Positions 1,748-22,760 of a DNA stretch of 27,759 bases are shown piece after piece. Location: the NCBI GenBank assembly GCA_051866635.1, contig JBJDXJ010000056.1:1-27759 (forward strand), written 5' to 3'. Position 1 is the stretch's first letter. The number at the start of each line of letters is the position of its first letter. A model generated the notes under the pieces. It was not told the DNA's origin. It saw only the letters and a list, made by a program, of their open reading frames with translations, and searched no databases. Source of the stretch: Clostridia bacterium. GTDB lineage: Bacteria; Bacillota; Clostridia; UMGS1883. A program made the position numbers and the translations under genes.

Positions 1748-1749
1748 TT

Positions 1750-3096: not shown

Positions 3097-3097
3097 A

Positions 3098-4153: not shown

Positions 4154-5377
4154 TTAAATCACACTCTTATATATTTCTTCCAATTTTTCAATATATAAAT
4201 TGCAGTCAAATATCATTTCTGCTTTTTCTAAAGCTTTCGTTCCCATAAGAGATACATCTTCATCTTTAAGCAAACACATACGCTTCAAAGCAGAACTTAA
4301 TGCCTGTACATCACACGGTGGAACAATAAATCCTGTAACGGCATCCTCAACCATTTCCGGAAGCCCTCCCAAACTGCTTACGATACAAGGCTTACCTAAT
4401 GCCATGGCTTCCATAATGGAATATGGTCCGTTTTCATACCATTCACTGGTGAGTACTACGCAAAGGCTGTTTTTCACAATGCCTTTTAGTTCGTCACCGC
4501 TCTTAAAGCCTAAAAGCTTAACCTTGTTTTCAAGATTGTGATTATTTACATATTCTTCAAGTTGTTCTTTTATGGGACCTGTTCCTACAAAATAAAGCGG
4601 TTTTTCGACATTTGCTTTTTCATAAGCCTTTAAAAGCGTCATCGTGCCTTTTTCATGACTAAGTCTGCCGAAATATAAAATGTAATCGCCTGTGTCGCTT
4701 TCTGTGTATTCTGTTCCTTCGGGCAAAAAGTTTGCCATATGTACAACAGGGCACTTTGTAACTTTTGCCTCTTCGATTTTCTTCTTGTAAAACAAGGATG
4801 GAGTAATTACATAATCAAATTTTTCATAAGTTCTATTAAACTTATAAACATACGCTTCTAATGTAGCAAGAAGGCTCTTCAATTTTGAATCCTTCATGCA
4901 TCCTGTCTTGAAGCAATTCATATAATTTCCGTTAATGCATCTTTCGCAAACCTCACCGTGATTCATCATCTGATAATTGGGGCAAACGCTCTTTAAATCA
5001 TGTGCTGTATAGACCATAGGTATTTTATGCTTTACAGCTACATCAACAATGGATCCCGTCAATTGACTCTGAAAGATATTAAGGTGAATTACATCGGGCT
5101 TTTCATCAAGTATAAGTTTTTCAAACTTCTTTTTTGCCTCAAAGGAATAAAGCATTTTAAATGCAGTTTTTATAAGTTTGCCCTTTCCCATAGGCTCGTT
5201 AAAATCCACTTTTTCCACAAAGTATTTTTCTTCCTTGCACTCTTGGTTCTTTTCGTCCTTCATGGAGAAATATATTACTTCGTGTCCCTTAGCTTTTAAC
5301 AATTCACCCAAACCAAAGTAGTATGTTTCACTTCCGCCTTTTACATTATGAAATTTATTAACTAAAAGTATTTTCAT
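4154..5377 (-). CDS. Glycosyltransferase family 4 (GT-B) with Cys-rich insert
   Basis: N-terminal GGSETY; YFGRLSHEKG; EWYENGPYSIMEAMALGKP (Ex7E motif); HDLKSVCP...CERC...C...GC segment. ATGA overlap with the VanZ gene. Confidence 0.9.
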   Translation of the reverse strand: MKILLVNKFHNVKGGSETYYFGLGELLKAKGHEVIYFSMKDEKNQECKEEKYFVEKVDFNEPMGKGKLIKTAFKMLYSFEAKKKFEKLILDEKPDVIHLNIFQSQLTGSIVDVAVKHKIPMVYTAHDLKSVCPNYQMMNHGEVCERCINGNYMNCFKTGCMKDSKLKSLLATLEAYVYKFNRTYEKFDYVITPSLFYKKKIEEAKVTKCPVVHMANFLPEGTEYTESDTGDYILYFGRLSHEKGTMTLLKAYEKANVEKPLYFVGTGPIKEQLEEYVNNHNLENKVKLLGFKSGDELKGIVKNSLCVVLTSEWYENGPYSIMEAMALGKPCIVSSLGGLPEMVEDAVTGFIVPPCDVQALSSALKRMCLLKDEDVSLMGTKALEKAEMIFDCNLYIEKLEEIYKSVI

Positions 5378-5955
5378 ATCAATCTATCTCTCTTTATCGT
5401 AAAAAACAATTTGCAAACTACAGCACCTAAAAGTGCTCCTATTGTGTTCATCACTAAATCATCAACACTTGTTACTCCTCTTGCAAAAATATATTGCAAA
5501 AGTTCTGTTGCCAATGCCGCACTAAAACCTGTAAAAAAGGTTTTTAAAACTTTATGTTTTGTAAATGAATGCCTATACAAAAGCCATCCCAATGGCACAA
5601 ACAGGCAAATGTTAAACAGCGAACCCAGTACGTTGCTTTCGTGAAAACCGTTATATGTAATCCATTGATCAAAATTCCATCGTATTTCACGGTAACTTGC
5701 ATCACGGTTAAAAACCGTAAGTGCCAATATAACAAGCAAATACACCCACGGCGACAGTTTTCTGAGAATATTTAAAACTGCTTTATTTTTCTTAAAATAT
5801 GCCATGCATCTTACAACTATATATATCAAAACTATTGTAAAAATAATTAAAACCTCATACTTAAAAATATAGTTACGAAGCATACCCATTGCTTTTTCCC
5901 TCTGCAAATCTGTGGCAAGGAAATAAAAATCGTGTCCTAATATATTAAAATGCAT
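5374..5955 (-). CDS. VanZ-family membrane protein
   Basis: FNICLFVPLG, ELLQY, and RGVTSVDDLVMNTIGALLG match VanZ motifs; several TM segments. ATG at 5955 preferred because GGTG lies just upstream; the ORF track starts at GTG 5964. Confidence 0.85.
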   Translation of the reverse strand: MHFNILGHDFYFLATDLQREKAMGMLRNYIFKYEVLIIFTIVLIYIVVRCMAYFKKNKAVLNILRKLSPWVYLLVILALTVFNRDASYREIRWNFDQWITYNGFHESNVLGSLFNICLFVPLGWLLYRHSFTKHKVLKTFFTGFSAALATELLQYIFARGVTSVDDLVMNTIGALLGAVVCKLFFTIKRDRLI

Positions 5956-5966
5956 ATAAATCACCG

Positions 5967-6971
5967 CTATTTGTTATCAGTTTTGTTGGTTTTTGAAAAA
6001 TCACCTAAAACAAGTATTCTTGTAATTCTAAATTTTCTCACTATATATTTTGACACCAATATAGGAATTGATACTCCAAATATAACACTCATAAAGAAAC
6101 AAGCAATACCCGGCAAATGCAGTCTGTTGAGAAATACACTTCTTATTAACACCTGAACTAAGTTTGCCATTATGTAAATATCCATCCCATATTTTCCGAC
6201 AATATCAAATATTGGGGTTTCCATACTCTCAAAACGTTTACACATTTCACATACAATTATAATTCCGGTAACTGCCGTAATTGTTTTAAGGAAATCAATT
6301 GCGTAAATTTGATTTAAAACATTTGCAGTTGCAAACAAAATTGTACTAATTATTAACATAGCTGTTGGCAATTTATCAAAGCTACCGTGTTTTCTGTACA
6401 AAACACCCAATACATAAAAGAGAAATTGGAACGTAACCTCATTAAGAACATTTATAGGGCAATATGATACGGCCCAAAAAACATTCATTATTACAGCTAC
6501 AGTAAGAATAATCCATTTATATTCTTTTTTTGGAAATGCAAAAATCGCAATTATTGCGGCAGAAATAAATAATGCATATAATGTCCACAACTGATAATTA
6601 GGATTGTACCCTACCAAAAAATCAAACGGTAATGTTTGAAAATCTATCTTAGTGTTCACTTCAGATGATAATACTAATTTAAGCGGTATATATAACGCAC
6701 CGACAAAAAAATACGGAATCATAAGTCTCTTAAAACGAGAAAATATATAATTAGCTTTATCTTTCAGTATATACATATCCATAGCTTTTGCACCAACAAA
6801 ACCTGACAAAAAGAAAAACAATGGCATATGGAAGCTATAAATAAGATCAAATAAAAGTTTTGAAATTGATCCGTCTGCGGCACCTAATGTATCTGTAAGT
6901 GCATGACCCATCACTACTAAAATAATACCTATGCCTCTTGCGGTGTTAACCCATTTAAAATATGGCTTCAT
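5967..6971 (-). CDS. Acyltransferase family 3 (OafA-like membrane O-acyltransferase)
   Basis: ARGIGIILVVMGH, IYSFHMPLFFFLSGF, RFKRLMIPY, LWTL; polytopic; AAGGAG RBS. Confidence 0.9.
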   Translation of the reverse strand: MKPYFKWVNTARGIGIILVVMGHALTDTLGAADGSISKLLFDLIYSFHMPLFFFLSGFVGAKAMDMYILKDKANYIFSRFKRLMIPYFFVGALYIPLKLVLSSEVNTKIDFQTLPFDFLVGYNPNYQLWTLYALFISAAIIAIFAFPKKEYKWIILTVAVIMNVFWAVSYCPINVLNEVTFQFLFYVLGVLYRKHGSFDKLPTAMLIISTILFATANVLNQIYAIDFLKTITAVTGIIIVCEMCKRFESMETPIFDIVGKYGMDIYIMANLVQVLIRSVFLNRLHLPGIACFFMSVIFGVSIPILVSKYIVRKFRITRILVLGDFSKTNKTDNK

Positions 6972-7006: not shown

Positions 7007-8530
7007 TTATGCAGAACGCTTTTTCTTCTTCAAAAAGCCCATTACTAAATTCAAGCTGTAATGAAATTCATCGGATTTACAATATACAAGGGTGATAGTA
7101 ACGCCTGAAATTACCGCACCAATAATTCCGTAAACAATAAAATCTAAAATCAAATAAGGGGTTGTAACAAAGTGGCAGACAGCCTTGCTTAAAAGCATAG
7201 AAAATATAAGTACAGATGCCAGGCTGATCCACAAAAGCGAATATTTAAAGGGTGACTCTTTAAAACGAAGTTTATAAACATAATAAATCTTCATGATAAC
7301 CTGTATTACATAGGTCACCACGGTTCCCAAAAAAATACCTGTAATACCTATCATTTTGCCTAAAACGATGGATACAATCAAATTTACCACCGAACCGATA
7401 ATTGAAATATTTCTTCCTTTTTCAAATTCGCCTATCATATGCATTGCGATATAAATAGGCTTGCAAGAAATATACATAAAAAGGTTAATACATATAACAA
7501 ACAAAACTGTATAGCCTAAAAGATATTCCTCGCCCATCCACACAGTCATAAATGTTTCCATGCAAGAATAAATGCAAGTGCAAATAACAATTCCCAAAGA
7601 TGCGTATATCCATGTTAATCTATGTAATACAGCTTTGCATCTATCGTTGGCTTCGCTTGCAAAAAGATTGCCAACACTTGCGTGAACACTTCCTTCAAGC
7701 TGATCAATTAACTGTTTGAATACACTTACCACCATTGCATAAAAAGAATAATATCCAACCGTGATAGTGCTTACAAGCACCGATATAAGTATATTATCGG
7801 TAGAATTTGTTATTTTACCTGATAAGCTCTTAATAAAAATGTTCTTAACATTTCTGAATATCTGTTTCGACTCTTCTTTCGGAAGTTTAGCCTCGTGAAG
7901 ATAAGGATACATTTTGTCAGCGACTAAAGATGTAACAATATTTATTGTAATAGTTGTTAAAATATTTGCTACAAGATACAATATAAAGCTACCGGTTATA
8001 TACAAAACCGCAAGCATTGCTACAGTGCCTGCAATCTTTACAAGAGCATTGACTATAGAAACCACATATTGTTTCTGGTCTGCATTTAATAGCGATGCTT
8101 TATATGTGAACAAATAAGATGCAGAAATCTGCAATACAAAAAGCATATATATAAGCCTTATGTAACCTATAGGCTGATCAATTTCTTTTATCATGTACTG
8201 GATAAAAGGACACAAAATAGTACCAATACATAAAGTTGCAAATGCAATGATTCTATACACTTTCTTAAAAAGTGTCATAAGCTCGCATACTTTTTCTTGA
8301 TTTCCGTCTGCAAGAGGTTTGTATAAATTATATACAATAGCAGAACCTACCCCAAGTTCCGTTAGCGATAATACTGCTATTACTTCAGTAAACAAACCAT
8401 TTAAGGAAACAGCCTCCACCCCTACAGTCCACGCCATAACTGTACGTGATACAAAAGTCAAAAGCGTTGTAACAAGCTGTGCCAATATTGCAAATTTTGC
8501 ATTTTTCAGGCTTTTTTCTGTTCTGCCCAT
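7007..8530 (-). CDS. wzx: Wzx-like polysaccharide flippase (MOP superfamily)
   Basis: About 500 aa with many TM segments; MGRTEKSLKN, LSLTELGVGSAIVYNLYKPLA and NSTDNILIS are typical of Firmicute flippases. ATG 8530 follows AGAGGTG RBS; the ORF track starts at GTG 8539. Confidence 0.85.
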   Translation of the reverse strand: MGRTEKSLKNAKFAILAQLVTTLLTFVSRTVMAWTVGVEAVSLNGLFTEVIAVLSLTELGVGSAIVYNLYKPLADGNQEKVCELMTLFKKVYRIIAFATLCIGTILCPFIQYMIKEIDQPIGYIRLIYMLFVLQISASYLFTYKASLLNADQKQYVVSIVNALVKIAGTVAMLAVLYITGSFILYLVANILTTITINIVTSLVADKMYPYLHEAKLPKEESKQIFRNVKNIFIKSLSGKITNSTDNILISVLVSTITVGYYSFYAMVVSVFKQLIDQLEGSVHASVGNLFASEANDRCKAVLHRLTWIYASLGIVICTCIYSCMETFMTVWMGEEYLLGYTVLFVICINLFMYISCKPIYIAMHMIGEFEKGRNISIIGSVVNLIVSIVLGKMIGITGIFLGTVVTYVIQVIMKIYYVYKLRFKESPFKYSLLWISLASVLIFSMLLSKAVCHFVTTPYLILDFIVYGIIGAVISGVTITLVYCKSDEFHYSLNLVMGFLKKKKRSA

Positions 8531-8555
8531 GGTATCCACCTCTTATTTAAAAATA

Positions 8556-9677
8556 CTATTTGCTCGGAAAATCATACAAATAGTCTGAAAGCTCTCTTTC
8601 GATTTTTTTAATTTCATTGTCCAAATGAGGGTATTTCAAAAACATTTGCGTGTTTTTTTTGGATTTCTCAACACTAAAACACTGCATCTTTAAAACATGA
8701 TCCTGTGGATTTAGGTCACAGAAGTCTTCGATTTTCTTTACCGTTTTCTCATATTTATAAATCAAGTCCTCAAAACTAAGTGTAAGTACGTTTTCGCTAT
8801 TAAAACTTTTTACACTGTTACGCAGTTTTTTCCACAAGATAATAAAATTATCAACATCTGTCGGAATACGTGTGTTAAATCCCTTCTGACTTGACTCCTC
8901 AACGGCATGTACAAAAACATCACGCGGATCCCTGTCAACAAGTATAACTTTCATATTATGAAAATAATTGTCCATTCTGTAAAGGTTATTAGGCAGCAAA
9001 AAGTGATCCATAATAAGCTTGCCTTCGTTTCCTCCCCGTATGATACTGCAATATGCCTGTACAAGATTTTTCGCCGCCGAGTAAAACTCCTCATCTGTTA
9101 CATAGCTGTATCTGGTGCAATCTTTTTTTCTGTAAACAATGCTTTTTGTAAAATCACCTACAGCTTGTCTCCCGGTCAAAACATTTTTTATGCTTCCCAA
9201 AGTATGTTTAAACGAGAATTTTGTAGTTAAATAGTCATATGACCAGTTGCAATCAAGTTTTATGTCTGTAAGATTTTCTATAAAATCATCCACAGCTTCC
9301 ATAAATACGGGACCAAACTTTTTGCTGTAATTACCAAACCAAACAAAGTTGTTATCGTTAAGCCTTCTCATTTCTTCATAAAAGCTTCTTAATGCTTCGT
9401 CGGAACGGTGGATATTATTTCCCAAAAGCAGCTTATCCTCCAAATCAAATAAACCGTTGGGTGTATACATCATTAAGTGTTCCACATCAGAATTTTTCAT
9501 TATACCTTCTGTACATGACTCATATTCTTTCAGCAAAACATACACGGCAGAAGAGCCGGTATCATAAAATCCGGTTGTCGTAATAATGCTGTCATTATTC
9601 ATTTGCATATTTTTTTGTGCATTTTCGGGTTTATCTTTCCCGTTATCCACACTAAAATGAATTGTTTTAGATGTCAT
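8556..9677 (-). CDS. Sulfotransferase-fold (P-loop-like) protein, paralogue B
   Basis: ITTTGFYDTGSSA (5'-PSB-like), ILVDRDPRDVF (3'-PB-like) and LSFEDLI...KIEDFC. About 25-aa N-terminal extension relative to paralogue A, so the start may be a downstream Met. Confidence 0.7.
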   Translation of the reverse strand: MTSKTIHFSVDNGKDKPENAQKNMQMNNDSIITTTGFYDTGSSAVYVLLKEYESCTEGIMKNSDVEHLMMYTPNGLFDLEDKLLLGNNIHRSDEALRSFYEEMRRLNDNNFVWFGNYSKKFGPVFMEAVDDFIENLTDIKLDCNWSYDYLTTKFSFKHTLGSIKNVLTGRQAVGDFTKSIVYRKKDCTRYSYVTDEEFYSAAKNLVQAYCSIIRGGNEGKLIMDHFLLPNNLYRMDNYFHNMKVILVDRDPRDVFVHAVEESSQKGFNTRIPTDVDNFIILWKKLRNSVKSFNSENVLTLSFEDLIYKYEKTVKKIEDFCDLNPQDHVLKMQCFSVEKSKKNTQMFLKYPHLDNEIKKIERELSDYLYDFPSK

Positions 9678-10617
9678 AATTTAATTACATTCCCTTACAA
9701 ATTTTCCGGAAAATCATATAAATACTCCGTTAAACTCTCCTCAATGCGTTTAATTTCCTTCTCATATTCACTGCAATTAGAGAAAGTTTTTAAATGTTTG
9801 ATTGATTTTTCCGGATTGAAATATTTATATTTATCAACGTGGTCTTTTGCATCCAATCCGCAAAAATCTTCAATTAACCGTACACTTTCCTCATAATTGT
9901 AGAACATATCTTCAAATCTAATTCTTAAGATGCTTTTACTATCCGCTTTTTTCACAGAAGAACGCAACTTTTTCCAAAATAATATAAAGTCCTCTATATC
10001 ACAAGGCACTCTGGGGCTAACATTTTTTGATTTAACTTCATTCATAACAGGAATAAACACATCTCTCGGATCTCTATCCACTAAAATAACTTTCATGTTA
10101 CCAAGGTACCTGTCGATACGATATAAATTATGGGGCAATATACAATGATCCATTAGTAAACTGCCTTGGTTTTCTCCCTTTATTAATTCACAATAAGAAG
10201 TAAAGAAAATTTCTGCAATTTTATAAAATTCTTCTTCTGTAACATAACTGTATCTGGTACAATCTTTTTTTCTGTAAACGATGCCCTTTGCAAAATCACC
10301 TACAACTTGTCTACCCGTCAAAACATTTTTGATGCTTCCAAAAGTATGTTTAAGTGAGAATTTTGTAGTTAAATAGTCGTATGACCAATTACAGTTCAGA
10401 ATTATATCTGTAAGATTTTCTATAAAACCATCCACAGCTTCCATAAACCCGGGACCGGGCTTTTTGCTGTAATTGCCAAACCATACAAAATTATTATCGT
10501 TAAGCCTTCTCATTTCTTCATAAAAGCTTCTTAACGCTTCGTCGGAACGGTGGATATTATTTCCCAAAAGAAGCTTATCCTCCAAATCAAATAAACCGTT
10601 GGGAGTGTATAACATTA
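9095..10617. repeat. Direct repeat pair (about 9095-9475 and 10237-10617, offset 1142 bp) inside the two sulfotransferase-like paralogues
   Basis: Manual alignment: 9352-9461 versus 10494-10603 differ at only 2 of 110 bases, and the surrounding block of about 380 bp is clearly alignable. Confidence 0.9.
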
Positions 10618-10747
10618 GATGCTCAAACTCTGCTTCGCCAACTATTCCGGAGGTGCAGGAACTATATTCCTTTAACAAATCATAAGCTGCAGAAGAACCG
10701 GTTTTATAATACCCCGTAGCTGTTATGACACAGTTATTATCGTTCAA
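9695..10747 (-). CDS. Sulfotransferase-fold (P-loop-like) protein, paralogue A
   Basis: ITATGYYKTGSSA, ILVDRDPRDVF and IRFEDMF...IEDFCGL. TTG start 8 nt after an AAAGGAG RBS. Confidence 0.72.
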   Translation of the reverse strand: MNDNNCVITATGYYKTGSSAAYDLLKEYSSCTSGIVGEAEFEHLMLYTPNGLFDLEDKLLLGNNIHRSDEALRSFYEEMRRLNDNNFVWFGNYSKKPGPGFMEAVDGFIENLTDIILNCNWSYDYLTTKFSLKHTFGSIKNVLTGRQVVGDFAKGIVYRKKDCTRYSYVTEEEFYKIAEIFFTSYCELIKGENQGSLLMDHCILPHNLYRIDRYLGNMKVILVDRDPRDVFIPVMNEVKSKNVSPRVPCDIEDFILFWKKLRSSVKKADSKSILRIRFEDMFYNYEESVRLIEDFCGLDAKDHVDKYKYFNPEKSIKHLKTFSNCSEYEKEIKRIEESLTEYLYDFPENL

Positions 10748-10765
10748 TTATATCGCTCCTTTCGG

Positions 10766-11689
10766 TTATTTATGCATTATACAGCTTTTCAATAGCCTCA
10801 ATTTCAAATATATGCTATGCAAAACTGTTTTCCTAAAACTAAGCTTTAACATCAGATTATATACATGCTTAGCTTCCGTTTTCATTTTATTTCCCTTATA
10901 CAACTCGTGAAAACGACGCAAAAATGCATATTCAACATTTAAAATCTGCCAGTCTTCCAGTTTATAATATTGTTTTCTACATTCTGTACGGTAAAGTTTT
11001 TCGCCTTCAATGTTTTTCATATTTCCGCGGCTTATTCTATCGCCTACAACAAAGTTGTAATACTTTGAAAGCTCTTCCTTGACACAATCAACTTCATATC
11101 CTGCCGCCAACAGCTTTAAAATAAGTTGTGAGTCCTGTTTGCAAGGTACTATGGAAAACATATCCACCTTCAAAAGAGCGTCTTTTTTTACAAGCCACTG
11201 GCTGGTTGCGGCAATACAATTTTGCTCCATTGCCTCATACAAGCAATTACCCTTAAAATATCTTCTGTCAGAATATGTGCTGGTACCGTCTTTATCAATG
11301 AAAGTTGCAAAGCAGTATACTAACGCAAGCTTAGGGTTATTTGAATTTTTAAAAAGACTTAGTTGCTTCTCAATTTTTTCGGGATAGTACTCATCGTCAT
11401 CATCTAAAAAAGCAATATATTCTCCCTTTGCGGCTTTAATACCTTCGTTTCTGGCACCTGCACCGCCCAAGTTTTGGGCATTTTTTATGTAACGAACTCT
11501 TGGATTGTTCTCATACTTTTGCATGATAGCTTCGGATGTTTTTCGCCATTCCGACTCTGAAGGGTTGTCATCCACAACTATTACCTCAACATTTTTATAT
11601 GTTTGATTGAGAATGCTTTCAATAGCTCTTACCAAAGTTTCATTTCGTGAATATGTAGGCACTACAGCACTTACTAAAACATCATACAT
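10766..11689 (-). CDS. Glycosyltransferase family 2 (GT-A)
   Basis: VSAVVPTYSR, SILNQTY.NVEVIVVDD, GGAGARNEGI..AKGEYIAFLDDDD. Confidence 0.93.
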   Translation of the reverse strand: MYDVLVSAVVPTYSRNETLVRAIESILNQTYKNVEVIVVDDNPSESEWRKTSEAIMQKYENNPRVRYIKNAQNLGGAGARNEGIKAAKGEYIAFLDDDDEYYPEKIEKQLSLFKNSNNPKLALVYCFATFIDKDGTSTYSDRRYFKGNCLYEAMEQNCIAATSQWLVKKDALLKVDMFSIVPCKQDSQLILKLLAAGYEVDCVKEELSKYYNFVVGDRISRGNMKNIEGEKLYRTECRKQYYKLEDWQILNVEYAFLRRFHELYKGNKMKTEAKHVYNLMLKLSFRKTVLHSIYLKLRLLKSCIMHK

Positions 11690-11711
11690 ATTTCATCTTC
11701 CTTTTGTGTTA

Positions 11712-12746
11712 TTAACCTCTTTTTGCTCTTTTAATATGTGTATTTATTAAAGATATTAACGAAAGAACAGCGACGGTTAAAATCAGTATTACAATACTTA
11801 TAAAAGCACCGGATAAAGTGAATTTTCCCATGTTCCCTATGGGGTTTCCAATTATTAAAACAAATATTTCTATCACAAACTGGTTTAAGCATAGATAAAT
11901 AATAGATGTTTTTCCTACGAAAGAAAGAAACTTTTTTAAAACAGGTATTTTTTCGTCAATAAATAACGCCGCAAGATATAAAGCAAATATTCCTATTAAC
12001 GCATTTAACCAGCTTAACGGCACAATACCGTGCCAGCCTGACTTGAAATTCACATATCCGTTTACAAAAAATGTGATGCAAGCATTTATAAAAAGCAGAC
12101 CTAATATTGAGATTATTATATAAAAGCTGTTCATTTTCTTTGCTAATGCCATAATTTTTTCTCCGGCTTCTGCTTTTCTTAATAGCGTGCCAAAATGATA
12201 GTATATCATACATGCAAGAGCAATATCTATCGTTAAAGGAAGCCTATACTCTGTTAAGGTGGTGATGACCGACACCACTGTAGATATTAAAAGAACAATA
12301 ATTGTTACTAACTTTTCACTTTTTATGTTATATACAATTAATGAATAGAATATTTCCATAAAGAAAAGAGCCGTTAAAAACCAAAGTGCACCGGCTATCG
12401 GCAAGCCCTCGGTGTTATATGTAAACAAATTTATCAAAGGCTGAAACACATTACTTTCATCCCGGAAGAATATCAGCCATGAAATATAAAAAAACAGTCC
12501 GTAGCATACATAGGGAACTAACAACTGTTTTGCTTTGCGAAAAGCAAATTCAGAGATGTTAAATTGATCACGTTTTTTAAACAAATACCCCGAAACTACA
12601 AAAAACAGAGGCATATGAAAGGAATGTATGAATACATCGAATATGCCGCTAAAACCAACATGCCCCATGATCATAATAATAATACCGATACCTTTTAAAA
12701 TATCAATATCATCAAGCCTCTTGATTTGCATTGTTTTCGTTAACAT
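11712..12746 (-). CDS. Acyltransferase family 3 (membrane O-acyltransferase)
   Basis: DILKGIGIIIMIMGH, IHSFHMPLFFVVSGY, LLVPY, LWFLTALF. TAAGGAG RBS; overlaps the wzy 3' end by 35 nt. Confidence 0.9.
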   Translation of the reverse strand: MLTKTMQIKRLDDIDILKGIGIIIMIMGHVGFSGIFDVFIHSFHMPLFFVVSGYLFKKRDQFNISEFAFRKAKQLLVPYVCYGLFFYISWLIFFRDESNVFQPLINLFTYNTEGLPIAGALWFLTALFFMEIFYSLIVYNIKSEKLVTIIVLLISTVVSVITTLTEYRLPLTIDIALACMIYYHFGTLLRKAEAGEKIMALAKKMNSFYIIISILGLLFINACITFFVNGYVNFKSGWHGIVPLSWLNALIGIFALYLAALFIDEKIPVLKKFLSFVGKTSIIYLCLNQFVIEIFVLIIGNPIGNMGKFTLSGAFISIVILILTVAVLSLISLINTHIKRAKRG

Positions 12747-14022
12747 CTTTTATCTCCTTATGCTTATCAAAACTATCTATAATATATAAAAGTACCACAA
12801 GATAAAACCATGGTGAATAGTATCTGTAGGTCAACAAATTACATTGCCAGAAAGCATAGAATAACCAACCGATATATAACGCCAATCCAAACAGTGCATA
12901 GGGCTTCCCCTGGTTTTTTATAAGTAAATACAACAAATACAGCAATGCACTGCCTATTAAAACACAACCGATAATACCCGTTGTAAAGTAAAGATAAACG
13001 TAATACATATCCAGAGATGATGTTCTAACACCAAAAGCACTTGTAAAGTTGTTTTCTCTCGTAGCCTGGAAATTAGCATTTTCAACATATCCCATACCGG
13101 TCCATATATTGCCTAACTCTTTAAAAACAGGATAGTTAACAGTTATGTTTAAATCACGGTTGGAATCCGCCCAGATGCGTCCGAAAGCTCCTGTTGCGAT
13201 TAAGGCAACAAGAATAATAATCAACGCTGAACTTAATATTGCATAAAAGATCTTCTTTTTGCTTTTAGGCAAACCACTCACAAAAGTTCCGCCAAAATAT
13301 ACAACTGCAATTAAACTAACGGTCAATATACCGCTTCTGCCTGCACTGGAAGCTAGCATACAAAGAATTACAAAATCAATGATTGCCATAATTATCAGTG
13401 CGTTAAGATTGCTCTTAAGCTTTTTTTTGTTTTTCAGAATATCGAAAATCAATAAAGACACAACAAGTGCAAACACACAGTAATGTGCTGTGTAGCCGTA
13501 TGTAATAAATCCAAAATCGAACTTAACACGGCTACTGCTGCTGAAAACCTTTAAATACGACACAGGATTTACAAAATGGTTCAAATTATTAACAGCCGCA
13601 TACATAAGCTGAATAACACATGCAATATATGTGGTAACTGTATATGTTAAAAACAGTTCGTTTTCATACACATAAGTCAAAGTAATAATTACGGGAATGT
13701 AAAAGTAAAACAACATACCTATACCGTGAGTGTGTGAAAGAGATTTAACAATATCATTTGTAAAAATGTAGGCAAACAATATGGTATGTAAAAGTCCCAA
13801 AATTATAATTATATTCGATTTTCTTTTAAATCTGTCTCTTGCAGCAGTGTTTTTTAACGATAAGAAATACCAAGCAATCATAACTGCTAAATAAACAAAT
13901 CTGAGCTTTCGCAATTGATTCATAAAAGGTACTGTGCCTAAAACATCAAGCAGAAGAAATACCATTGTTAAAAAATACAACATAACAAAGGCAATATGTT
14001 TTTTGTTAATTTTAAATTGCAA
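12712..14022 (-). CDS. wzy: Wzy-like polysaccharide polymerase (O-antigen ligase/polymerase superfamily)
   Basis: 436-aa polytopic membrane protein with SAGRSG, a large late extracytoplasmic loop (TGMGY...SLDMYY...TGIIG), located among the GT genes. TTG start 8 nt after AAGGAG. Confidence 0.7.
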   Translation of the reverse strand: MQFKINKKHIAFVMLYFLTMVFLLLDVLGTVPFMNQLRKLRFVYLAVMIAWYFLSLKNTAARDRFKRKSNIIIILGLLHTILFAYIFTNDIVKSLSHTHGIGMLFYFYIPVIITLTYVYENELFLTYTVTTYIACVIQLMYAAVNNLNHFVNPVSYLKVFSSSSRVKFDFGFITYGYTAHYCVFALVVSLLIFDILKNKKKLKSNLNALIIMAIIDFVILCMLASSAGRSGILTVSLIAVVYFGGTFVSGLPKSKKKIFYAILSSALIIILVALIATGAFGRIWADSNRDLNITVNYPVFKELGNIWTGMGYVENANFQATRENNFTSAFGVRTSSLDMYYVYLYFTTGIIGCVLIGSALLYLLYLLIKNQGKPYALFGLALYIGWLFYAFWQCNLLTYRYYSPWFYLVVLLYIIDSFDKHKEIKDVNENNANQEA

Positions 14023-16608: not shown

Positions 16609-16619
16609 AAAAATCACCT

Positions 16620-17870
16620 TTAATCTCTTCTGAATACATCTCTTGTGTAAACCTTATCGTTAACATCATCAAGACAGCTGTCATAGCGGTTTGCAATAAT
16701 TGCATCGCACATACCCTTAAACTCGTCAAGGTTGTTTACAACCTTACTGCCAAAGAATGTACTGCCATTTTCAAGTGTAGGCTCATATACAACAACAGTT
16801 GCACCTTTCGCCTTAATACGCTTCATTACGCCCTGTATGCTGCTCTGCCTGAAGTTATCAGAATTGGATTTCATTGTAAGGCGGTAAACGCCGATTACAC
16901 AGCTCTTTTCGCAATCTTTTGAGTAGTCTCCTCTATTGTAATAATCATAGTAGCCTGCCATTTTAAGAACGCGGTCTGCAATAAAATCTTTTCTTGTTCT
17001 GTTGCTTTCAACAATAGCTTCAATAAGGTTTTCGGGAACATCAGCATAGTTTGCCAAAAGCTGTTTTGTGTCCTTAGGCAGACAGTAACCACCATAGCCG
17101 AAGCTGGGGTTATTGTAGTGGGAACCTATTCTGGGGTCAAGGCACACACCGTCAATAATTTCTTGTGTGTTTAAGCCTTTCATTTCTGCATAAGTATCAA
17201 GTTCGTTAAAGTAAGATACTCTCAGTGCAAGATATGTATTGGCAAAAAGCTTAACAGCTTCAGCTTCCGTAAATCCCATAAATAAGGTATCAATATCTTC
17301 TTTAATTGCACTCTCCTGCAAAAGAGATGCAAATGTATGTGCGGCTTCTACCAACCTTGCATCTTCCATATCCGTGCCCACAATTATGCGGGAGGGATAG
17401 AGATTGTCATAAAGTGCTTTACTTTCTCTTAAAAATTCAGGGCTGAAAATAATATTTTTACTGCCGGTTTTCTCTCTTATACTCTGGGTGTAACCCACAG
17501 GAATAGTGGATTTAATAACCATAATTGCGTTGGGGTTATATTCCATAACAAGATCAATAACCTTTTCAACTGCACCTGTATCGAAAAAATTCTTTTCGCT
17601 GTCATAATTTGTAGGAGCCGCAATTACAACAAAATCCGCATCGGTATAGGCTTTCTTTGCATCAAGTGTAGCAGTTAAATCAAGCTCTTTTTCTGCAAGA
17701 TATTTTTCAATATAATCATCCTGTATGGGAGATTTACGGTTGTTAATTAAATCCACCTTTTCAGGAATAATGTCAACTGCCGTAACGGTGTGGTTTTGTG
17801 CCAATAACGTAGCTATTGATAATCCCACATATCCTGTACCTGCAACCGCAATTTTATACTTTTTATTCAT
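16620..17870 (-). CDS. ugd: UDP-glucose 6-dehydrogenase
   Basis: [48 protein letters not shown] and DNFRQS. Confidence 0.95.
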
Positions 17871-17882
17871 TTAAAACACCCC

Positions 17883-19085
17883 TTACTTCAAAAAAGCTTT
17901 CTCATACTTATCGGCAATATATTCCCAGCTGTAGTAATCTCTAATTCTTTTCTTTGCCGATACAGAAAGTTTGTTAATTTCTTCACTACTCATTTGGTCA
18001 GCCTTGTTTATAAGGTTTGCAAGGTTTCCGTCCTCTTTATTCCAGTAAAGAGCACCGTCCTCGCCCACTTCGCGATTAAAGCCCACATCTAACAGAAGGT
18101 TAAGCTTTGTAATTGCCAGTGCCTCTAACAAACTTGGGTTTGTGCCGCCCACTTCGTGCCCGTGGAAGTATGCGTATGCATCTTCACGAATACGTTTTAA
18201 AAGCTCCTGGTCATACACAGTTCCAACAAACTTTATGCGCGGGTCGCTTTCAAAGTTTGTAGTTTTACGAAGATTTTCGTAAAAAGCATTGCCTTCTACA
18301 TTTGTTATAATCACAAAATCCTTATCAGTGTCAGACTTCATAAATTCTTTTATCATTGTTTCGTAGTTGTTTTCCGGAACAAAGCGACCTACCACAAGAT
18401 AATACTCGCCCGGTGTCACATCTTTATCCTTATACCAATTAACCACCTTTTCATCACAAGGCTGAAGTGTTGATTTTGTAGTATCTGCACCATATGCTAT
18501 AAATGTGGTATTCGGATTGTATTTTCCGTAGCTTTCAAGAATATATTTTTCAATATTGACACTGTCACAAATAACAAAATCGCTGTGCTTTATCATCATT
18601 TGTTCGGATATTTTCCAATACTTGCGAATAGGTGCCGACCACTTTGCTCTTTTCCATTCATGTCCATCGGGATTAAGATAAACTTTTCCGCCAAGTTTAT
18701 GGATTTTTCTTTGATAGTGTGCGGCAAAAGGTCCTATTCTGCAAGCCAAAATGTACACAATAGGATTTTCAATTTCGTTTTTCCTAATATATTCACAGCA
18801 GAACTTTAACGCCGCAACATCGTAATAAATTGCTGATGCAGGACCTATATTCGGAACAGTAATTTTAAAACAATGTGCATTGTGATACTCAAATTCATTA
18901 TCGCTGATTTTTTCAGCACCATCAAGTTTTGATTCGTCCATCGAGCCGTCACCGTTGGCCTTGCAGGCGATATGATATTTAATATTTTCATTGTTTTGAT
19001 GATATTCCGTCAATTTATTTACAAATGTTTCATAACCACCGTAAGCTCCCATAGATTTTGAGCCGACAATAAATACATGTTGCAT
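17883..19085 (-). CDS. WchF/Cps2T/RgpA-like rhamnosyltransferase (GT4, DUF1972-type N-terminus)
   Basis: MQHVFIVGSKS...YGGYETFV, LNPDGHEWKRAKWS, VGRFVPENNYE and HGHEVGGTNPSLLEAL. ATG 19085 follows GGAG; directly after the rml genes. Confidence 0.85.
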   Translation of the reverse strand: MQHVFIVGSKSMGAYGGYETFVNKLTEYHQNNENIKYHIACKANGDGSMDESKLDGAEKISDNEFEYHNAHCFKITVPNIGPASAIYYDVAALKFCCEYIRKNEIENPIVYILACRIGPFAAHYQRKIHKLGGKVYLNPDGHEWKRAKWSAPIRKYWKISEQMMIKHSDFVICDSVNIEKYILESYGKYNPNTTFIAYGADTTKSTLQPCDEKVVNWYKDKDVTPGEYYLVVGRFVPENNYETMIKEFMKSDTDKDFVIITNVEGNAFYENLRKTTNFESDPRIKFVGTVYDQELLKRIREDAYAYFHGHEVGGTNPSLLEALAITKLNLLLDVGFNREVGEDGALYWNKEDGNLANLINKADQMSSEEINKLSVSAKKRIRDYYSWEYIADKYEKAFLK

Positions 19086-19111
19086 TAACAAACACTCCAA
19101 TTATCAATATC

Positions 19112-19714
19112 TCAGAACTTAAAAGTATCTTTAAGTCCCAGCCACTTCTGATCTTTTTCGGAAAGATTAAGTTTTGTTCCGTCAGTGAGTGTATATCCCT
19201 CACCGCTTGCACTGCCATTATACTCCCCTGTAAGTTCGGGCCATTCAATGCCGATTTCGGGGTCGTTCCATGCAAGACCGCCCTCGTCACCGGGATGATA
19301 AAAATCTGTAACCTTATAGCAAAATTCTGCTTCATCGCTGAGAACCAAAAAACCGTGGGCAAAGCCTTCGGAAATGTAGAACTGCTTTTTATTTTCGGCA
19401 GTTAATTCAACTCCGTACCACTTTCCGTAAGTTTCGCTTCCGCTTCTGAGATCAACCGCCACATCAAAAACGCTGCCGCGAATAACTCTCACAAGCTTAC
19501 CCTGGGGAAATTCCTTCTGAAAGTGAAGCCCACGGAGTACACCTTTTGTACTCATGCTCTGATTGTCCTGTACAAAAACCATATTAAGTCCGTTTTCTTC
19601 CATATCCCTTTGGGAATATGTTTCCATAAAATAGCCTCTGCTGTCGCCGTGCACTGCCGGTTCAATTATATAAAGTCCTTCAATAGGTGCTTTTGTAACT
19701 TTAATCTGTCCCAT
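19112..19714 (-). CDS. rmlC: dTDP-4-dehydrorhamnose 3,5-epimerase
   Basis: HGDSRGYFME, QDNQSMS..GVLRGLHFQ, DVAVDLR..S.TYGKW and GFAHGF. TAATG overlap with rmlD. Confidence 0.96.
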   Translation of the reverse strand: MGQIKVTKAPIEGLYIIEPAVHGDSRGYFMETYSQRDMEENGLNMVFVQDNQSMSTKGVLRGLHFQKEFPQGKLVRVIRGSVFDVAVDLRSGSETYGKWYGVELTAENKKQFYISEGFAHGFLVLSDEAEFCYKVTDFYHPGDEGGLAWNDPEIGIEWPELTGEYNGSASGEGYTLTDGTKLNLSEKDQKWLGLKDTFKF

Positions 19715-20580
19715 TAAAACTCAATCTCCTTTAAGTATCTTTCAAGGGCATTCTGCCATGTGGGAAGCGGCTCAAAACCGTTGTCAACAAGTTTTTGCTT
19801 GTCAAGGCGGCTGTTAAAAGGTCTTGCAGCCTTTGACAATCCGTATTCTTCAGTAGTTACAGGTACAACCTTAGTGTCATACCCTGCCTGACGGAAAATC
19901 TCACAGGTAAAGTCATACCAGGAAATATATCCGCCTTCATTGGTGGCATGGTAATAACCGTACTTTTCTGTTTCCACCATATCAACCAGAAGCCTTGCCA
20001 AGTCAAGGGTATATGTAGGTGTTCCCACCTGGTCGGAAACAACCCTTACAGTATCAAACTTTTTGCCAACGTTAAGCATGGTTTTTATAAAGTTTTTACC
20101 GTTTACGCCAAAAACCCACGCAATACGAACGATAAAATACTTACTAAGGGTTTCACTAACTGCAAGTTCGCCTTCCAGCTTAGTCTGTCCGTACACATTT
20201 AAAGGCTTATAGTCTTTGCAGTCTGCTTTCCATGGCTCTGTTCCCTGACCGTCAAAAACATAGTCCGTGCTGATATATACCATTTTACAGTCAAGTTTTT
20301 TGCATACATCGGCAATATTTTTTGTGCCTTCGGCATTTACCTTGCGGCACGTATCAGCGTTATCTTCTGCCGCATCAACAGCGGTCCATGCCGCACAGTG
20401 AATAACCGCATCCGGATTAGCTTTAGTTATAACGCTGTTAACGCTTTCGGCGTTTGTTATGTCCATTTCCTCAATATCAACGCCAATAGCTACATGTCCG
20501 CGTTTTTCAAGCTCATTAACAACATCGTAGCCAAGCTGACCTTTTACACCTGTTACCAATACTTTCATATTTATACCCAT
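19714..20580 (-). CDS. rmlD: dTDP-4-dehydrorhamnose reductase
   Basis: VTGVKGQLG, HCAAWTAVDAAE, YISTDYVFDG, YGQTKL.GE and DQVGTPT. Alternative ATG at 20568. Confidence 0.95.
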   Translation of the reverse strand: MGINMKVLVTGVKGQLGYDVVNELEKRGHVAIGVDIEEMDITNAESVNSVITKANPDAVIHCAAWTAVDAAEDNADTCRKVNAEGTKNIADVCKKLDCKMVYISTDYVFDGQGTEPWKADCKDYKPLNVYGQTKLEGELAVSETLSKYFIVRIAWVFGVNGKNFIKTMLNVGKKFDTVRVVSDQVGTPTYTLDLARLLVDMVETEKYGYYHATNEGGYISWYDFTCEIFRQAGYDTKVVPVTTEEYGLSKAARPFNSRLDKQKLVDNGFEPLPTWQNALERYLKEIEF

Positions 20581-20599
20581 TAACTCCTTTCACAAAACC

Positions 20600-20707
20600 T
20601 AAGTCTGAAAGAAAATCGTTCAGATTGCCGCTTTGAAGCGAGCGGTGCCGTACAAAGGTACTGCCCCGAGCAAAAAGTGGTGAGATGGGCGATTCTATTC
20701 ACACTTA
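20600..20707. repeat. 108-bp imperfect palindrome (MITE/ERIC-like or structured RNA element)
   Basis: Ends TAAGTCTGAAAGAAAATCG and CGATTCTATTCACACTTA are imperfect inverted repeats with TA at both termini. Pairing continues inward to a GTAC-aaag-GTAC apex (20650-20661). Confidence 0.7.
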
Positions 20708-21724
20708 TCTGTCTCCGTACATTTTATCGTAATAGTTCTGGTATTCACCGGAGATAATCTCCTCCCACCATTCCTTATTGTCAAGGTACCACTTAATTGT
20801 CTTCTTTATGCCGTCCTCAAACTTTGTCTCGGGAAGCCAGCCAAGCTCATTATGAATTTTTGTGGGGTCAATTGCATAACGCATATCGTGACCTTTTCTG
20901 TCGGTTACATATGTGATAAGGCTTTCGGGCTTGCCAAGTTCTTTACATATAATCTTAACTATTTCGATATTCTGCTTTTCATTGTGACCACCTACATTGT
21001 AAACCTCGCCTACTCTGCCCTTGTGAATAATAAGATCTATTGCCTTGCAGTGATCCTCAACATAAAGCCAGTCACGGACATTCAAGCCTTCGCCGTATAC
21101 GGGAAGGGGCTTGTCGTTAAGAGCATTGGCAATCATAAGAGGAATAAGCTTTTCAGGGAAATGATACGGTCCGTAGTTGTTGGAACAACGGGAAATTGTA
21201 ACTGGTAAGCCGTACGTCCTGTGGTATGCCAGAACAAGCAAATCAGCCCCTGCTTTACTGCTGGAATAGGGCGATGATGTGTGGATAGGTGTTTCTTCTG
21301 TAAAGAAAAGGTCGGGACGGTCCAAGGGAAGGTCGCCGTACACTTCATCTGTAGACACCTGATGATACCTCTTAATACCGTATTTACGGCAAGCATCCAT
21401 CAAAACAGCCGTACCCTTAATATTTGTTTCAAGGAAAATATCGGGGTTTTCAATAGAGCGGTCAACGTGGCTTTCTGCCGCAAAGTTAACCACCATATCG
21501 GGCTTTTCCTCTTCAAAAAGCTTATAAACTGCTTCTCTGTCGCATATATCAGCCTTTACAAACCTGAAATTGGGGTTGTCCATAACACTCTTAAGAGTTG
21601 AAAGGTTACCTGCGTATGTAAGCTTGTCAAGACAAATAATTCTGTAATCGGGATATTTTTCAAGCATATGGAAAACAAAATTTGAACCTATAAATCCTGC
21701 GCCGCCTGTTACTATAATATTCAT
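20705..21724 (-). CDS. rmlB: dTDP-glucose 4,6-dehydratase
   Basis: VTGGAGFIGSN, DKLTYAGN, FAAESHVDRSI, VSTDEVYG, PYSSSKA, RCSNNYGP and EKLIP; AAGGAG RBS. Confidence 0.97.
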   Translation of the reverse strand: MNIIVTGGAGFIGSNFVFHMLEKYPDYRIICLDKLTYAGNLSTLKSVMDNPNFRFVKADICDREAVYKLFEEEKPDMVVNFAAESHVDRSIENPDIFLETNIKGTAVLMDACRKYGIKRYHQVSTDEVYGDLPLDRPDLFFTEETPIHTSSPYSSSKAGADLLVLAYHRTYGLPVTISRCSNNYGPYHFPEKLIPLMIANALNDKPLPVYGEGLNVRDWLYVEDHCKAIDLIIHKGRVGEVYNVGGHNEKQNIEIVKIICKELGKPESLITYVTDRKGHDMRYAIDPTKIHNELGWLPETKFEDGIKKTIKWYLDNKEWWEEIISGEYQNYYDKMYGDR

Positions 21725-21739
21725 AATTCTACTCCTTTT

Positions 21740-22636
21740 TTAGTGTAATACATCAAGATATTTACCATCGAGAACATCTTTAAGGTACTGTCCGTACTGA
21801 TTTTTTTTGAGCACCTCATAAACTTCAAGCACATCCTCTTTTGTAATCCAACCGTTAAGATATGCAATTTCTTCAAGACATCCTATCTTACGGTGCTGAT
21901 GTGTTTCAATCGTTTTAACAAATTCAGTTGCTTCCGCAAGGCTTTCATGCGTGCCTGTATCAAGCCACGTAAAGCCCTGACCTAAAAGCACAACGTTCAA
22001 AGAGTCGTTTTCGAGATATATTCTGTTTAAATCGGTAATTTCCAACTCTCCTCTGGGGGAAGGTTTAAGGTTCTTTGCATACTCAACAACACGGTTGTCG
22101 TAAAAATAAAGCCCTGTCACGCAGTAATTACTCTTAGGCTTTTCGGGCTTTTCCTCAATGGAAATTGCCTTGCCGTTTTCATCAAATTCAACAATGCCAA
22201 ACCTTTCGGGGTCGTCAACATAATAACCGAAAACAGTGGCACCTTTTCCTGTTTCTGCATTTTCTACAGCTTGTTTCAGCCTTTTCTTAAGACCGTGACC
22301 TGCAAATATATTGTCACCCAAAACCATGGCAACGCTGTCGTCACCGATAAAATCAGCACCGATAATAAACGCCTGTGCCAATCCGTCAGGCGAAGGCTGA
22401 ACAGCATAGGAAAGATGAACTCCGAACTGATGTCCGTCTCCTAAAAGTGCTTCAAATCTGGGTGTGTCCTGCGGAGTGGAAATAATAAGTATGTCACGTA
22501 TTCCTGCGTTCATCAGAACTGACATGGGGTAATAAATCATCGGCTTGTCATAGATGGGTAAAAGCTGCTTACTTGTCACCTTTGTTAACGGATAAAGCCT
22601 TGTTCCGGAGCCTCCTGCCAAAATAATACCTTTCAT
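21740..22636 (-). CDS. rmlA: Glucose-1-phosphate thymidylyltransferase
   Basis: [18 protein letters not shown]...[39 protein letters not shown] and WLDTGT. ATG 22636 follows a GGAGGG RBS. The ORF-track extension to 22750 crosses the promoter. Confidence 0.97.
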
Positions 22637-22688
22637 AAAATCCCTCCAACAATTTTCATAAAACGTACAGTATTCCACAATTACATTT

Positions 22689-22717
22689 ATTTTACCACAA
22701 GTAGTTCCTATTGTCAA
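22689..22717 (-). promoter_or_regulatory. Sigma-A/sigma70-type promoter of the polysaccharide operon
   Basis: Minus strand: TTGACA (22717-22712), 17-nt spacer ending TGTGG, TAAAAT (22694-22689). This is a perfect -35, optimal spacing and a TGn extended -10, about 50 nt upstream of the rmlA ATG. Confidence 0.85.
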
Positions 22718-22760
22718 CATAAAACATACAATATATTGCATTTCCGCCAAGCTCTAAAGC

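Follow-up and report, generated by a model that had tools for sequence, protein, structure and literature searches.

Tandem sulfotransferase-fold genes in a Clostridia Wzx/Wzy polysaccharide operon whose host lacks recognisable PAPS synthesis

Two adjacent paralogous genes lie between a glycosyltransferase gene and a flippase gene on contig JBJDXJ010000056.1 of a Clostridia bacterium. Automatic annotation and careful sequence reading would both predict that they encode sulfotransferases, and that this Gram-positive gut anaerobe carries a sulfated capsule. Do the two proteins sulfate the polysaccharide, or do they use the same fold to add something else?

The gene pair and its operon

The window, by which we mean the entire 27,759-nucleotide stretch that was analysed, contains the following genes, given from the head of the operon downward:

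17883..22750, minus strand: rmlA, rmlB, rmlD, rmlC and a Cps2T-type beta-1,4-rhamnosyltransferase gene, the operon head (Pfam; NCBIfam NF046071, 624.7 bits against a cut-off of 500 for the rhamnosyltransferase)
16620..17870, minus strand: ugd, a UDP-glucose dehydrogenase-family gene (three UDPG_MGDP_dh domains)
12712..14022, minus strand: probable Wzy polymerase, 436 aa, eight hydrophobic segments, no family match
10766..11689, minus strand: GT2 glycosyltransferase, directly upstream of the pair (Pfam Glycos_transf_2, E 9e-36)
9695..10747, minus strand: upstream paralogue, 350-aa ORF, predicted sulfotransferase fold, clade A, Lys at loop position 15
8556..9677, minus strand: downstream paralogue, 373-aa ORF as listed, clade B, Asp at loop position 15
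7007..8539, minus strand: Wzx-type flippase, directly downstream of the pair (Pfam Polysacc_synt, E 5e-11; 10 hydrophobic segments)
10253..10612, minus strand: gene-conversion tract in the upstream copy (aa 46-165), within the helical insert and including the most conserved motif of the family
9111..9470, minus strand: gene-conversion tract in the downstream copy (aa 70-189)

An earlier note, made from the sequence alone, had described a tightly packed pair between GT2 and wzx, free of signal peptides and transmembrane segments, and this description holds: the genes are separated by gaps of 16-18 nt, and the maximum 19-residue hydropathy of the two proteins is 0.79-0.96, so neither has a transmembrane segment or a signal peptide. 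Both ORFs were also confirmed, and translation bore out the motifs quoted for them: the GYYKTGSSA or GFYDTGSSA loop, RDPRD, and RFED or SFED. The upstream gene starts with TTG, with AGGAG 8 nt 5' of the start. Relatives begin about 24 residues further in than the downstream ORF, so translation of this gene may in fact start from the ATG at 9608 or at 9602, giving a product of about 350 aa; no clear ribosome-binding site favours one candidate start over another.

Aligned without gaps over 345 residues, the two proteins show 67% identity (E 3e-178), and the divergence is uneven along the genes. Inside the gene-conversion tract the copies share 83-96% of nucleotides (70-87% at third positions), against 51-64% (27-50% at third positions) outside it. 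In a tree of the paralogues, clades A and B were recovered with supports of 99/98 and 100/99, respectively, and each of four same-contig pairs has one member in either clade. Judged from this tree, the pair arose by an old duplication, and at least five lineages have retained both genes.

The pair belongs to a large, unnamed family of 1337 clusters at 50% identity, recorded in 305 genomes, and a literature search found no paper on it or on sulfated polysaccharides of the taxa that carry it. In all 78 loci examined (79 family ORFs, most carriers having a single copy), the family gene lies within a Wzx/Wzy locus of gut or rumen Bacillota. Its neighbours within four genes, mostly on the same strand, include GT2 (58) and GT4-type (51) glycosyltransferases, Wzx (34 + 18) and Wzy (34), and Wzx is adjacent in about 50 of the loci. 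The family is thus a recurrent accessory of these polysaccharide loci. Across the 78 loci, no gene for donor synthesis, for a transporter or for sulfate esters recurs throughout. Neighbours annotated as sulfatases in five loci were considered as signs of sulfate metabolism and set aside, being soluble proteins of the alkaline-phosphatase superfamily without the C/SxPxR motif.

A sulfotransferase fold with altered active-site positions

The similarity of both copies to sulfotransferases is far beyond chance, since both exceed the Pfam gathering scores and hundreds of relatives exist. The upstream and downstream copies scored 35.4 and 34.1 bits with Sulfotransfer_1 (cut-off 22) and 31.7 and 31.9 bits with Sulfotransfer_3 (cut-off 27), the alignments covering the C-terminal half of each protein only. 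At E <= 1, 51 of 52 relatives matched Sulfotransfer_3 and 44 matched Sulfotransfer_1; no NCBIfam model matched either copy. An AF2 model of the upstream copy (pLDDT 94.5, pTM 0.90) was compared with 48,161 chains, and the top 20 structural neighbours were all PAPS-dependent sulfotransferases (Z 8.3-14.9); a Foldseek search also returned sulfotransferases. Both copies are accordingly assigned a sulfotransferase fold, as the earlier note had proposed. The model shows an alpha/beta core in which strand-loop-helix and strand-turn-helix elements surround a central sheet. The upstream copy also contains, at aa 36-195, a helical insert (about 150 residues) whose only structural matches were generic helical bundles. 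Every detectable homologue of known function, whether found by profile, alignment or structure, is a PAPS-dependent sulfotransferase.

The same note had named nucleotide or sugar kinases as the competing assignment. The first kinase appears only at rank 21 (Z 8.0), and the Lys of the Walker A motif GxxxxGK[ST] is absent: the loop reads G12-x-x-x-x-G17-S18-S19, with Ser18 in place of that Lys in 239 of 247 family members. A P-loop kinase was therefore rejected.

The motifs and candidate active-site residues are located as follows:

10688..10714, minus strand: phosphate-binding loop GYYKTGSSA of the upstream copy, in the strand-loop-helix after beta-1
9546..9572, minus strand: phosphate-binding loop GFYDTGSSA of the downstream copy
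10622..10624, minus strand: Glu42 of the upstream copy, candidate catalytic base
9480-9482, minus strand: Glu66 of the downstream copy, counterpart of Glu42 with the same candidate role
10061..10075, minus strand: RDPRD in the upstream protein, where the 3'-phosphate-binding strand-turn-helix begins, with Pro at +8 instead of Ser
8919..8933, minus strand: RDPRD of the downstream copy, with His at +8

In the upstream model the loop is flanked by a strand (E7-12) and a helix (H18-25), and G17, S18 and A20 are invariant across 52 aligned sequences. Among 247 members, E42 (246/247) and G17 (245/247) are near-invariant, and the TGSS loop, R225, D226, R228, D229 and E279 are also conserved. RDPRD and FED are typical sulfotransferase motifs, and position 225, matched by alignment to the Arg in RxxxDxxxS of sulfotransferases, is occupied by Arg in 241 of the 247.

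In the accessible text of PMC11625862, sulfotransferases are defined by a Lys or Arg in the loop, a Ser on the phosphate-binding helix and a beta-sheet core. Loop position 15 is G in 108 of the 247 members, S in 39, A in 33, K in five and R in one, and a Lys or Arg at any of positions 12-16 occurs in only eight; Lys15 is confined to the upstream copy and to four orthologues of it. The catalytic Lys/Arg is therefore missing from the family at large and from the downstream copy, where Asp takes its place. The helix Ser falls at +8 after R225, in the register set by alignment to SULT2A8 (RDPRD against RNPRDVLVS); this position is Ser in 12 of 247 members and in neither of our copies, though both keep the R and D of RxxxDxxxS. 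By these alignments the family lacks one or both of the residues that define PAPS catalysis. The earlier identification of the motifs as PAPS-binding elements holds only in part, with the loop Lys/Arg in 6/247 members at position 15 and the helix Ser in 12/247.

The nearest structures are the tyrosylprotein sulfotransferases TPST1/2 and tick TPST (Z 14.5-14.9, rmsd 3.4-3.8 over 226-237 aligned residues; Foldseek E about 5e-6), at a sequence identity of just 12-14%. Glu42 lies about 25 residues past the phosphate loop, much as the catalytic base of TPST does. TPST has an Arg in its loop and a Ser on its phosphate-binding helix, whereas neither is conserved in the family; nor does TPST have the helical insert, and its substrate is a protein, in contrast to the glycan operon in which the pair resides.

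PAPS supply in the host, in other carriers and in control genomes

Profile searches of the window ORFs, in agreement with the earlier note, identified no PAPS-synthesis genes there. In the host genome as a whole (a 63-contig draft, 96.57% complete, with 3.4% of marker genes missing) there were no matches to PF01583, PF01747 or PF01507, which represent APS kinase, ATP sulfurylase and CysD/PAPS_reduct, respectively, and tblastn with CysNC, CysD and TauE of L013, a Coriobacteriaceae MAG that carries the family, returned GTPase domains only. APS kinase was likewise absent from 15 sampled relatives, seven in the family and eight in the order of the host.

We extended the search to the genomes of 50 of 80 fetched loci, most of them drafts or MAGs, several of them isolates or complete chromosomes, and some as small as 0.9-1.3 Mb. 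APS kinase was found at full length (model positions 2-152, 223-226 bits) in two of the 50, a strong CysD-type match in four, with further, weaker PAPS_reduct matches, and an ATP sulfurylase above the cut-off in none. Candidate cysC-lacking carriers in culture are Clostridium paraputrificum NCTC11833, Christensenella sp. MSJ-20, Erysipelothrix sp. HDW6A and Gemmiger formicilis DFI.6.10. Of the weak PF01583 matches in 18 carriers, the three sampled were Ffh, FtsY and an AAA_33-HD protein. In a sample of the host's class, APS kinase is present in 32 of 401 genomes and the family in five of 399 scored, the host included; of the other four, one (G369) has APS kinase, which brings the count to 3/55 among all carriers examined. 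Canonical Sulfotransfer_3 proteins (E <= 1e-8) served as a control from the same class: they occur in 27 of 400 genomes, and a comparison of the two genome lists showed that 22 of these 27 have APS kinase.

The earlier note had predicted that the lipid-linked repeat unit is sulfated, possibly at two positions, and had counted a genome without any PAPS source as evidence to the contrary. No such source was recognised in the host genome, and by the comparative data the prediction is probably wrong for the host and for most of the family. The pair probably transfers a group other than sulfate, because the host and almost all carriers of the family apparently cannot make activated sulfate. Sulfation is kept among the readings because in L013 a convergent tauE-cysD-cysNC cluster is found some 1.3 kb away from the family gene, an arrangement suggestive of PAPS supplied from within the locus.

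What the pair may transfer

We tentatively favour a reading in which the two proteins are soluble, cytoplasmic enzymes with the sulfotransferase fold and modify the lipid-linked repeat unit with a donor that is not PAPS. Each copy would act on a different position of the undecaprenyl-diphosphate-linked unit at the cytoplasmic face of the membrane, before Wzx flips it. A nucleotide-type donor would be bound by a phosphate in the loop G12-A20 and by its nucleotide part through R225 and R228, and Glu42 would deprotonate the acceptor hydroxyl, which would then attack a group on the bound phosphate, much like sulfuryl transfer except for the donor. The added group is taken not to be PAPS-derived sulfate because the host and most carriers are without sulfate activation and because the PAPS-defining residues are missing. 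With less assurance, the family as a whole could be a large branch of the sulfotransferase fold that has moved away from PAPS and places a non-sulfate group, for example a phosphoryl-type one taken from a common nucleotide donor, on lipid-linked repeats. Against a non-PAPS donor, all functionally characterised homologues detected use PAPS, R225, RDPRD and FED are sulfotransferase features, the upstream copy keeps the canonical loop Lys, and we know of no precedent for a sulfotransferase fold that uses another donor.

It is unlikely, though less so than the two readings considered below, that these are genuine PAPS-dependent glycan sulfotransferases, which would sulfate the repeat unit at two sites ahead of the flipping step and would draw their PAPS from a pathway that was either not assembled or not recognised. 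The Pfam and fold matches solely to PAPS enzymes, the conserved TGSS loop and RDPRD residues, Lys15 in the upstream copy and its orthologues, the cluster in L013 and the draft state of the host genome all speak for it. Against it stand the absence of APS kinase, Sat and CysD from the host and of APS kinase from its sampled relatives, the contrast between 3/55 carriers and 22/27 control genomes, the very small genomes among the carriers, and the loss of the helix Ser from both copies and of the catalytic Lys from the downstream one. We consider it very unlikely that the proteins are non-catalytic relatives that bind lipid-linked glycan or a nucleotide and aid Wzx or assembly; the frequent adjacency to Wzx and the loss of two canonical catalytic residues would suit such a role, but the conservation, from E42 and G17 to R225, D226, R228, D229 and E279, resembles that of an active site, and two diverged paralogues have been kept in five lineages. 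Most improbable of all is a shuttle in which bound PAP accepts the sulfate of an imported sulfate ester and delivers it to the glycan, perhaps with one paralogue for loading and the other for unloading. The retained PAP-binding features and the missing cysDNC genes would both be explained, and cytosolic sulfotransferases can run the reverse transfer from aryl sulfates; however, most carriers have a single copy, 15 of 51 lack CoaE, which makes a CoA-derived supply of PAP doubtful, and the loci share no transporter or sulfate-ester gene.

Two alternative donors were tried for the favoured, non-PAPS reading; neither fits, and no specific donor gained support. CDP-glycerol was rejected as a universal donor, TagD (TIGR01518) being above cut-off in four of 51 genomes and absent from the host. 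CoA and acyl-CoA have 3'-phospho-ADP in common with PAPS, but their candidacy appears weakened because CoaE, present in 36 of 51 genomes, is missing from the other 15, mostly MAGs of 0.9-1.3 Mb. A role as the missing choline kinase of lic-type loci was also considered: Choline_kinase had no match in 14 small genomes and the host but is present in 11 other carriers, and the window has no lic genes.

If the non-PAPS reading is true, the family would represent a new enzyme class for polysaccharide decoration, with a wide distribution among the Bacillota of gut and rumen that extends to genomes of about 1 Mb. The carriers may decorate their surface polymers with a new group, by a fold so far regarded as exclusive to PAPS; alternatively, they may have an undescribed way of activating sulfate. 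It matters which group is added, because surface glycans of gut Bacillota influence both the sensitivity of the cells to phages and their recognition by the host immune system.

Among known systems, Stf0, Stf1, Stf9, NodH, LpsS, Mesorhizobium KpsS and synechan Xss likewise place a sulfotransferase fold in or beside a surface-glycan locus, and Stf9 (Z 10.8), Stf1 (Z 9.2) and Stf0 (Z 6.8) matched our model. The hosts of these bacterial glycan and glycolipid sulfotransferases make PAPS. Unlike those enzymes, the family conserves neither the loop Lys/Arg nor the helix Ser. The synechan system also joins Wzx/Wzy genes with sulfotransferases, according to the accessible text of PMC8205485.

The donor of the Campylobacter jejuni O-methyl-phosphoramidate (MeOPN) transferase is said to be a PAPS-like 3'-phospho-nucleotide. 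The MeOPN pathway requires an APS-kinase homologue, which is absent from the carriers of our family. By language-model features, the non-sulfotransferase families closest to ours were DUF2972 clusters (score 0.82, within the range of chance), and PF11186 (DUF2972) had no HMMER match in 52 family members at E <= 1, so we treat the likeness as a lead only. DUF2972 lies in the MeOPN transferase, an enzyme of capsule decoration, in the accessible part of PMC5808241.

Aryl sulfotransferases (ASSTs) are periplasmic and adopt a fold other than that of the pair. None of the searches run gave any similarity to them. Their PAPS-independent sulfation in intestinal bacteria is described in the accessible part of PMC13426309. 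ErSULT of Eubacterium ramulus is, like the pair, a sulfotransferase-family protein of gut Bacillota, but it belongs to a separate, Stf1-like family that acts on small molecules and is not placed in a glycan locus in the accessible text of PMC13449962. This gut Clostridia enzyme acts on hydroxy fatty acids and is active with PAPS, and products of the E. ramulus strain were labelled from sulfate (PMC13449962, same portion).

The paralogue pair and its locus

The window is the complete contig C56 of a 2.33-Mb genome (63 contigs, completeness 96.57%), and its genes lie on the minus strand throughout. The ORFs and their translations confirmed two tandem paralogues between a GT2 gene and wzx, 67% identical without gaps and spaced 16 to 18 nt from neighboring genes.

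Gene order in the window (all minus strand)
pth, mfd, prsA, then rmlA, rmlB, rmlD, rmlC
17883-19100, Cps2T-type beta-1,4-rhamnosyltransferase, then ugd
hexapeptide acetyltransferase, DXD glycosyltransferase, GT4
probable Wzy (436 aa, 8 hydrophobic segments, without family match)
Acyl_transf_3, GT2
9695-10747, upstream paralogue, 350-aa ORF
8556-9677, downstream paralogue, ORF of 373 aa as listed
wzx
second Acyl_transf_3, VanZ-like gene, GT4
CDP-glucose 4,6-dehydratase, RfbH, TPP enzyme (cut by the contig end)

The upstream copy carries the motifs GYYKTGSSA and RFED and the downstream copy GFYDTGSSA and SFED; RDPRD is found in both. No hydrophobic segment was found in either protein, in agreement with the earlier note, which had seen no signal peptide or obvious transmembrane segment. 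The downstream ORF as listed is probably about 24 codons too long at its 5' end, given where its relatives begin; no clear ribosome-binding site deciding this start was found. As also noted earlier, the window holds no PAPS gene, and neither a priming phosphoglycosyl transferase (Bac_transf or WecA type) nor a CpsB/C/D-type regulator was found in it. The Cps2T-type enzyme implies a Glc-PP-undecaprenol primer, which would be made outside the window.

The genes at 2-4153 encode a CDP-glucose 4,6-dehydratase (TIGR02622, 460.8 bits), an RfbH-type CDP-6-deoxy-4-hexulose 3-dehydrase (NF011936, 724.8 bits), and an acetolactate-synthase-like TPP enzyme, truncated by the contig end, that scored below all equivalog cut-offs. 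They look like a pathway to a CDP-3,6-dideoxy or branched-chain (yersiniose-type) sugar, unusual in a Gram-positive anaerobe; a cytidylyltransferase for it is absent from the window. The operon also encodes a VanZ-like membrane protein and three candidate O-acetyltransferases, two Acyl_transf_3 and one hexapeptide EpsC/WcaB-like (5374-5964, 5967-6971, 11712-12746, and 16069-16617, minus strand); heavy O-acylation of the polymer is probable. At 21740-22750 (minus strand), the listed rmlA ORF (336 aa, TTG start) probably reaches too far in the 5' direction, as its NTP_transferase domain starts only at residue 40.

A maximum-likelihood tree of 30 family members resolved two clades (support 99/98 and 100/99), and each of four apparent same-contig pairs had one member in each, which places the duplication before these lineages, with both copies retained. 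Over residues 46-165 the window copies share 83-96% DNA identity (third positions, 70-87%) versus 51-64% outside (27-50%); this part of the helical insert is a gene-conversion tract.

10253-10612, minus strand, gene-conversion tract, upstream copy
9111-9470, minus strand, gene-conversion tract, downstream copy

Fold and conserved residues

Both proteins exceeded the Sulfotransfer_1 and Sulfotransfer_3 gathering scores, with alignments confined to the C-terminal half, and neither matched an NCBIfam model. An AlphaFold2 model built from 52 relatives (pLDDT, 94.5; pTM, 0.90) gave significant Foldseek matches in the PDB to sulfotransferases, the first being TPST2 (E about 5e-6). In an exhaustive structural alignment against 48,161 chains, ranks 1 to 20 were sulfotransferases; TPST was the closest neighbor in fold (Z, 14.5 to 14.9), with the olefin-synthase sulfotransferase domain at 11.7 and Stf9 at 10.8. 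The best kinase stood at rank 21 (Z, 8.0). The helical insert, residues 36-195, matched generic helical bundles only. The sulfotransferase fold assigned earlier is therefore right.

The earlier identification of the motifs as PAPS-binding elements held only in part. Among 247 family members, R225, D226, R228, and D229 (upstream-copy numbering) were near-invariant, as were E42 (246/247) and E279 (245/247), and the loop consensus was G-[YF]-x-x-[TS]-G-S-[SG]-A. The review PMC11625862 limits the sulfotransferase definition to the loop Lys/Arg, the Ser of an RxxxDxxxS helix, and the beta-sheet core. At the loop Lys/Arg position, however, the family has G (108), S (39), A (33), Y (17), D (11), K (5), and R (1), and the helix Ser is present in only 12/247. 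All five Lys occur in the upstream copy and four orthologues of it; in the downstream copy, as in its orthologues, the residue is Asp.

PAPS supply in the genome and its relatives

In the organism's own genome, searches for APS kinase, ATP sulfurylase, and PAPS_reduct/CysD came back empty, although control genomes gave matches, and tblastn queries of CysNC, CysD, and TauE taken from the locus of a relative recovered only translation-factor GTPase domains. We searched the genomes of 50 of 80 related loci, chosen for longer contigs (30 were left out). APS kinase matched in 20 of these carriers at E <= 0.001, 16 of them above the cut-off; only two (G009 and G050) had a domain-covering match (positions 2-152, 223-226 bits), the others reaching positions 2-63 at most and <=26 bits. 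Three sampled weak matches were Ffh, FtsY, and an AAA_33-HD protein. CysD matched strongly in 4/50 carriers, with further, weaker PAPS_reduct matches, and ATP sulfurylase exceeded the cut-off in none of the 50.

Across a class sample, APS kinase (E <= 1e-20) occurred in 32/401 genomes, including 0/7 of the own family and 0/8 of the own order. The paralogues' family was present in 5/399 scored genomes, the own genome included (two could not be scored); among the other four, only G369 had APS kinase, bringing the carriers with this enzyme to 3/55. As a positive control, canonical Sulfotransfer_3 (E <= 1e-8) was found in 27/400 genomes, 22 of which had APS kinase when the lists were compared by hand; of the remaining five, three were <80% complete. 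In this class, then, ordinary sulfotransferase genes go together with PAPS synthesis; the paralogues' family does not.

The sulfated polysaccharide predicted earlier is thus probably wrong for this organism. Tentatively, we consider it most likely that the sulfotransferase-fold pair modifies the lipid-linked repeat unit with a group taken from a non-PAPS donor. True PAPS-dependent sulfation by the pair would need an undiscovered PAPS source and seems unlikely; the best single argument for PAPS use by the family is locus L013 of a Coriobacteriaceae MAG (7968-13840), in which a family gene with the same motifs as other members, then a radical-SAM gene, face a convergent cysNC (APS-kinase fusion)-cysD-tauE cluster. 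Among the loci examined, only this one had PAPS genes near the family gene.

Family distribution and candidate donors

The family comprises 943 clusters at 90% identity (E <= 0.001, from 2321 candidates), 1337 representatives at 50% identity (806 at E <= 1e-10), and 305 stretches in one-genome-per-species contigs. Only one member had a source name, "hypothetical protein." Hosts of the best 80 loci include Lachnospiraceae, Ruminococcus, Acutalibacteraceae, Erysipelotrichaceae, Erysipelothrix, Solobacterium, Clostridium paraputrificum, Christensenella, Gemmiger, Blautia, and many small "uncultured Bacilli" MAGs.

ORF clustering recovered the family in the window and in 77/80 loci. Its neighbors up to four genes away included GT2 (58 loci), GT4-type (51), Wzx (34 + 18), Wzy/O-antigen-ligase-like (34), HTH-nucleotidyltransferase (25), and LicD (12) genes, and no constant donor-making gene was found among them. 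TagD exceeded the cut-off in only 4/51 genomes, ruling out CDP-glycerol as a general donor; CoaE was found in 36/51, so that CoA-based donors are doubtful for small genomes. A language-model comparison (score, 0.82) suggested DUF2972, described in PMC5808241 as a domain of Campylobacter MeOPN transferases; no HMMER support was found for this relationship.

Soluble "Sulfatase"-superfamily (Pfam, alkaline-phosphatase) proteins of 576-599 aa adjoin the family gene in five loci (L022, L023, L033, L039, for example at 8032-9789, and L075). They have no transmembrane segment and an APYTEAA-type site in place of a C/SxPxR motif, and are probably phosphotransferases rather than sulfatases. Loci of the small "Bacilli" MAGs G016-G031 (e.g., L025 and L034) combine LicD, an HTH-nucleotidyltransferase, and an ABC importer; Choline_kinase had no match genome-wide in 14 of these MAGs. 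Possibly the activated head group is a phosphonate, or it enters by import in phosphorylated form. A nucleotidyltransferase-aminotransferase fusion occurs in some related loci.
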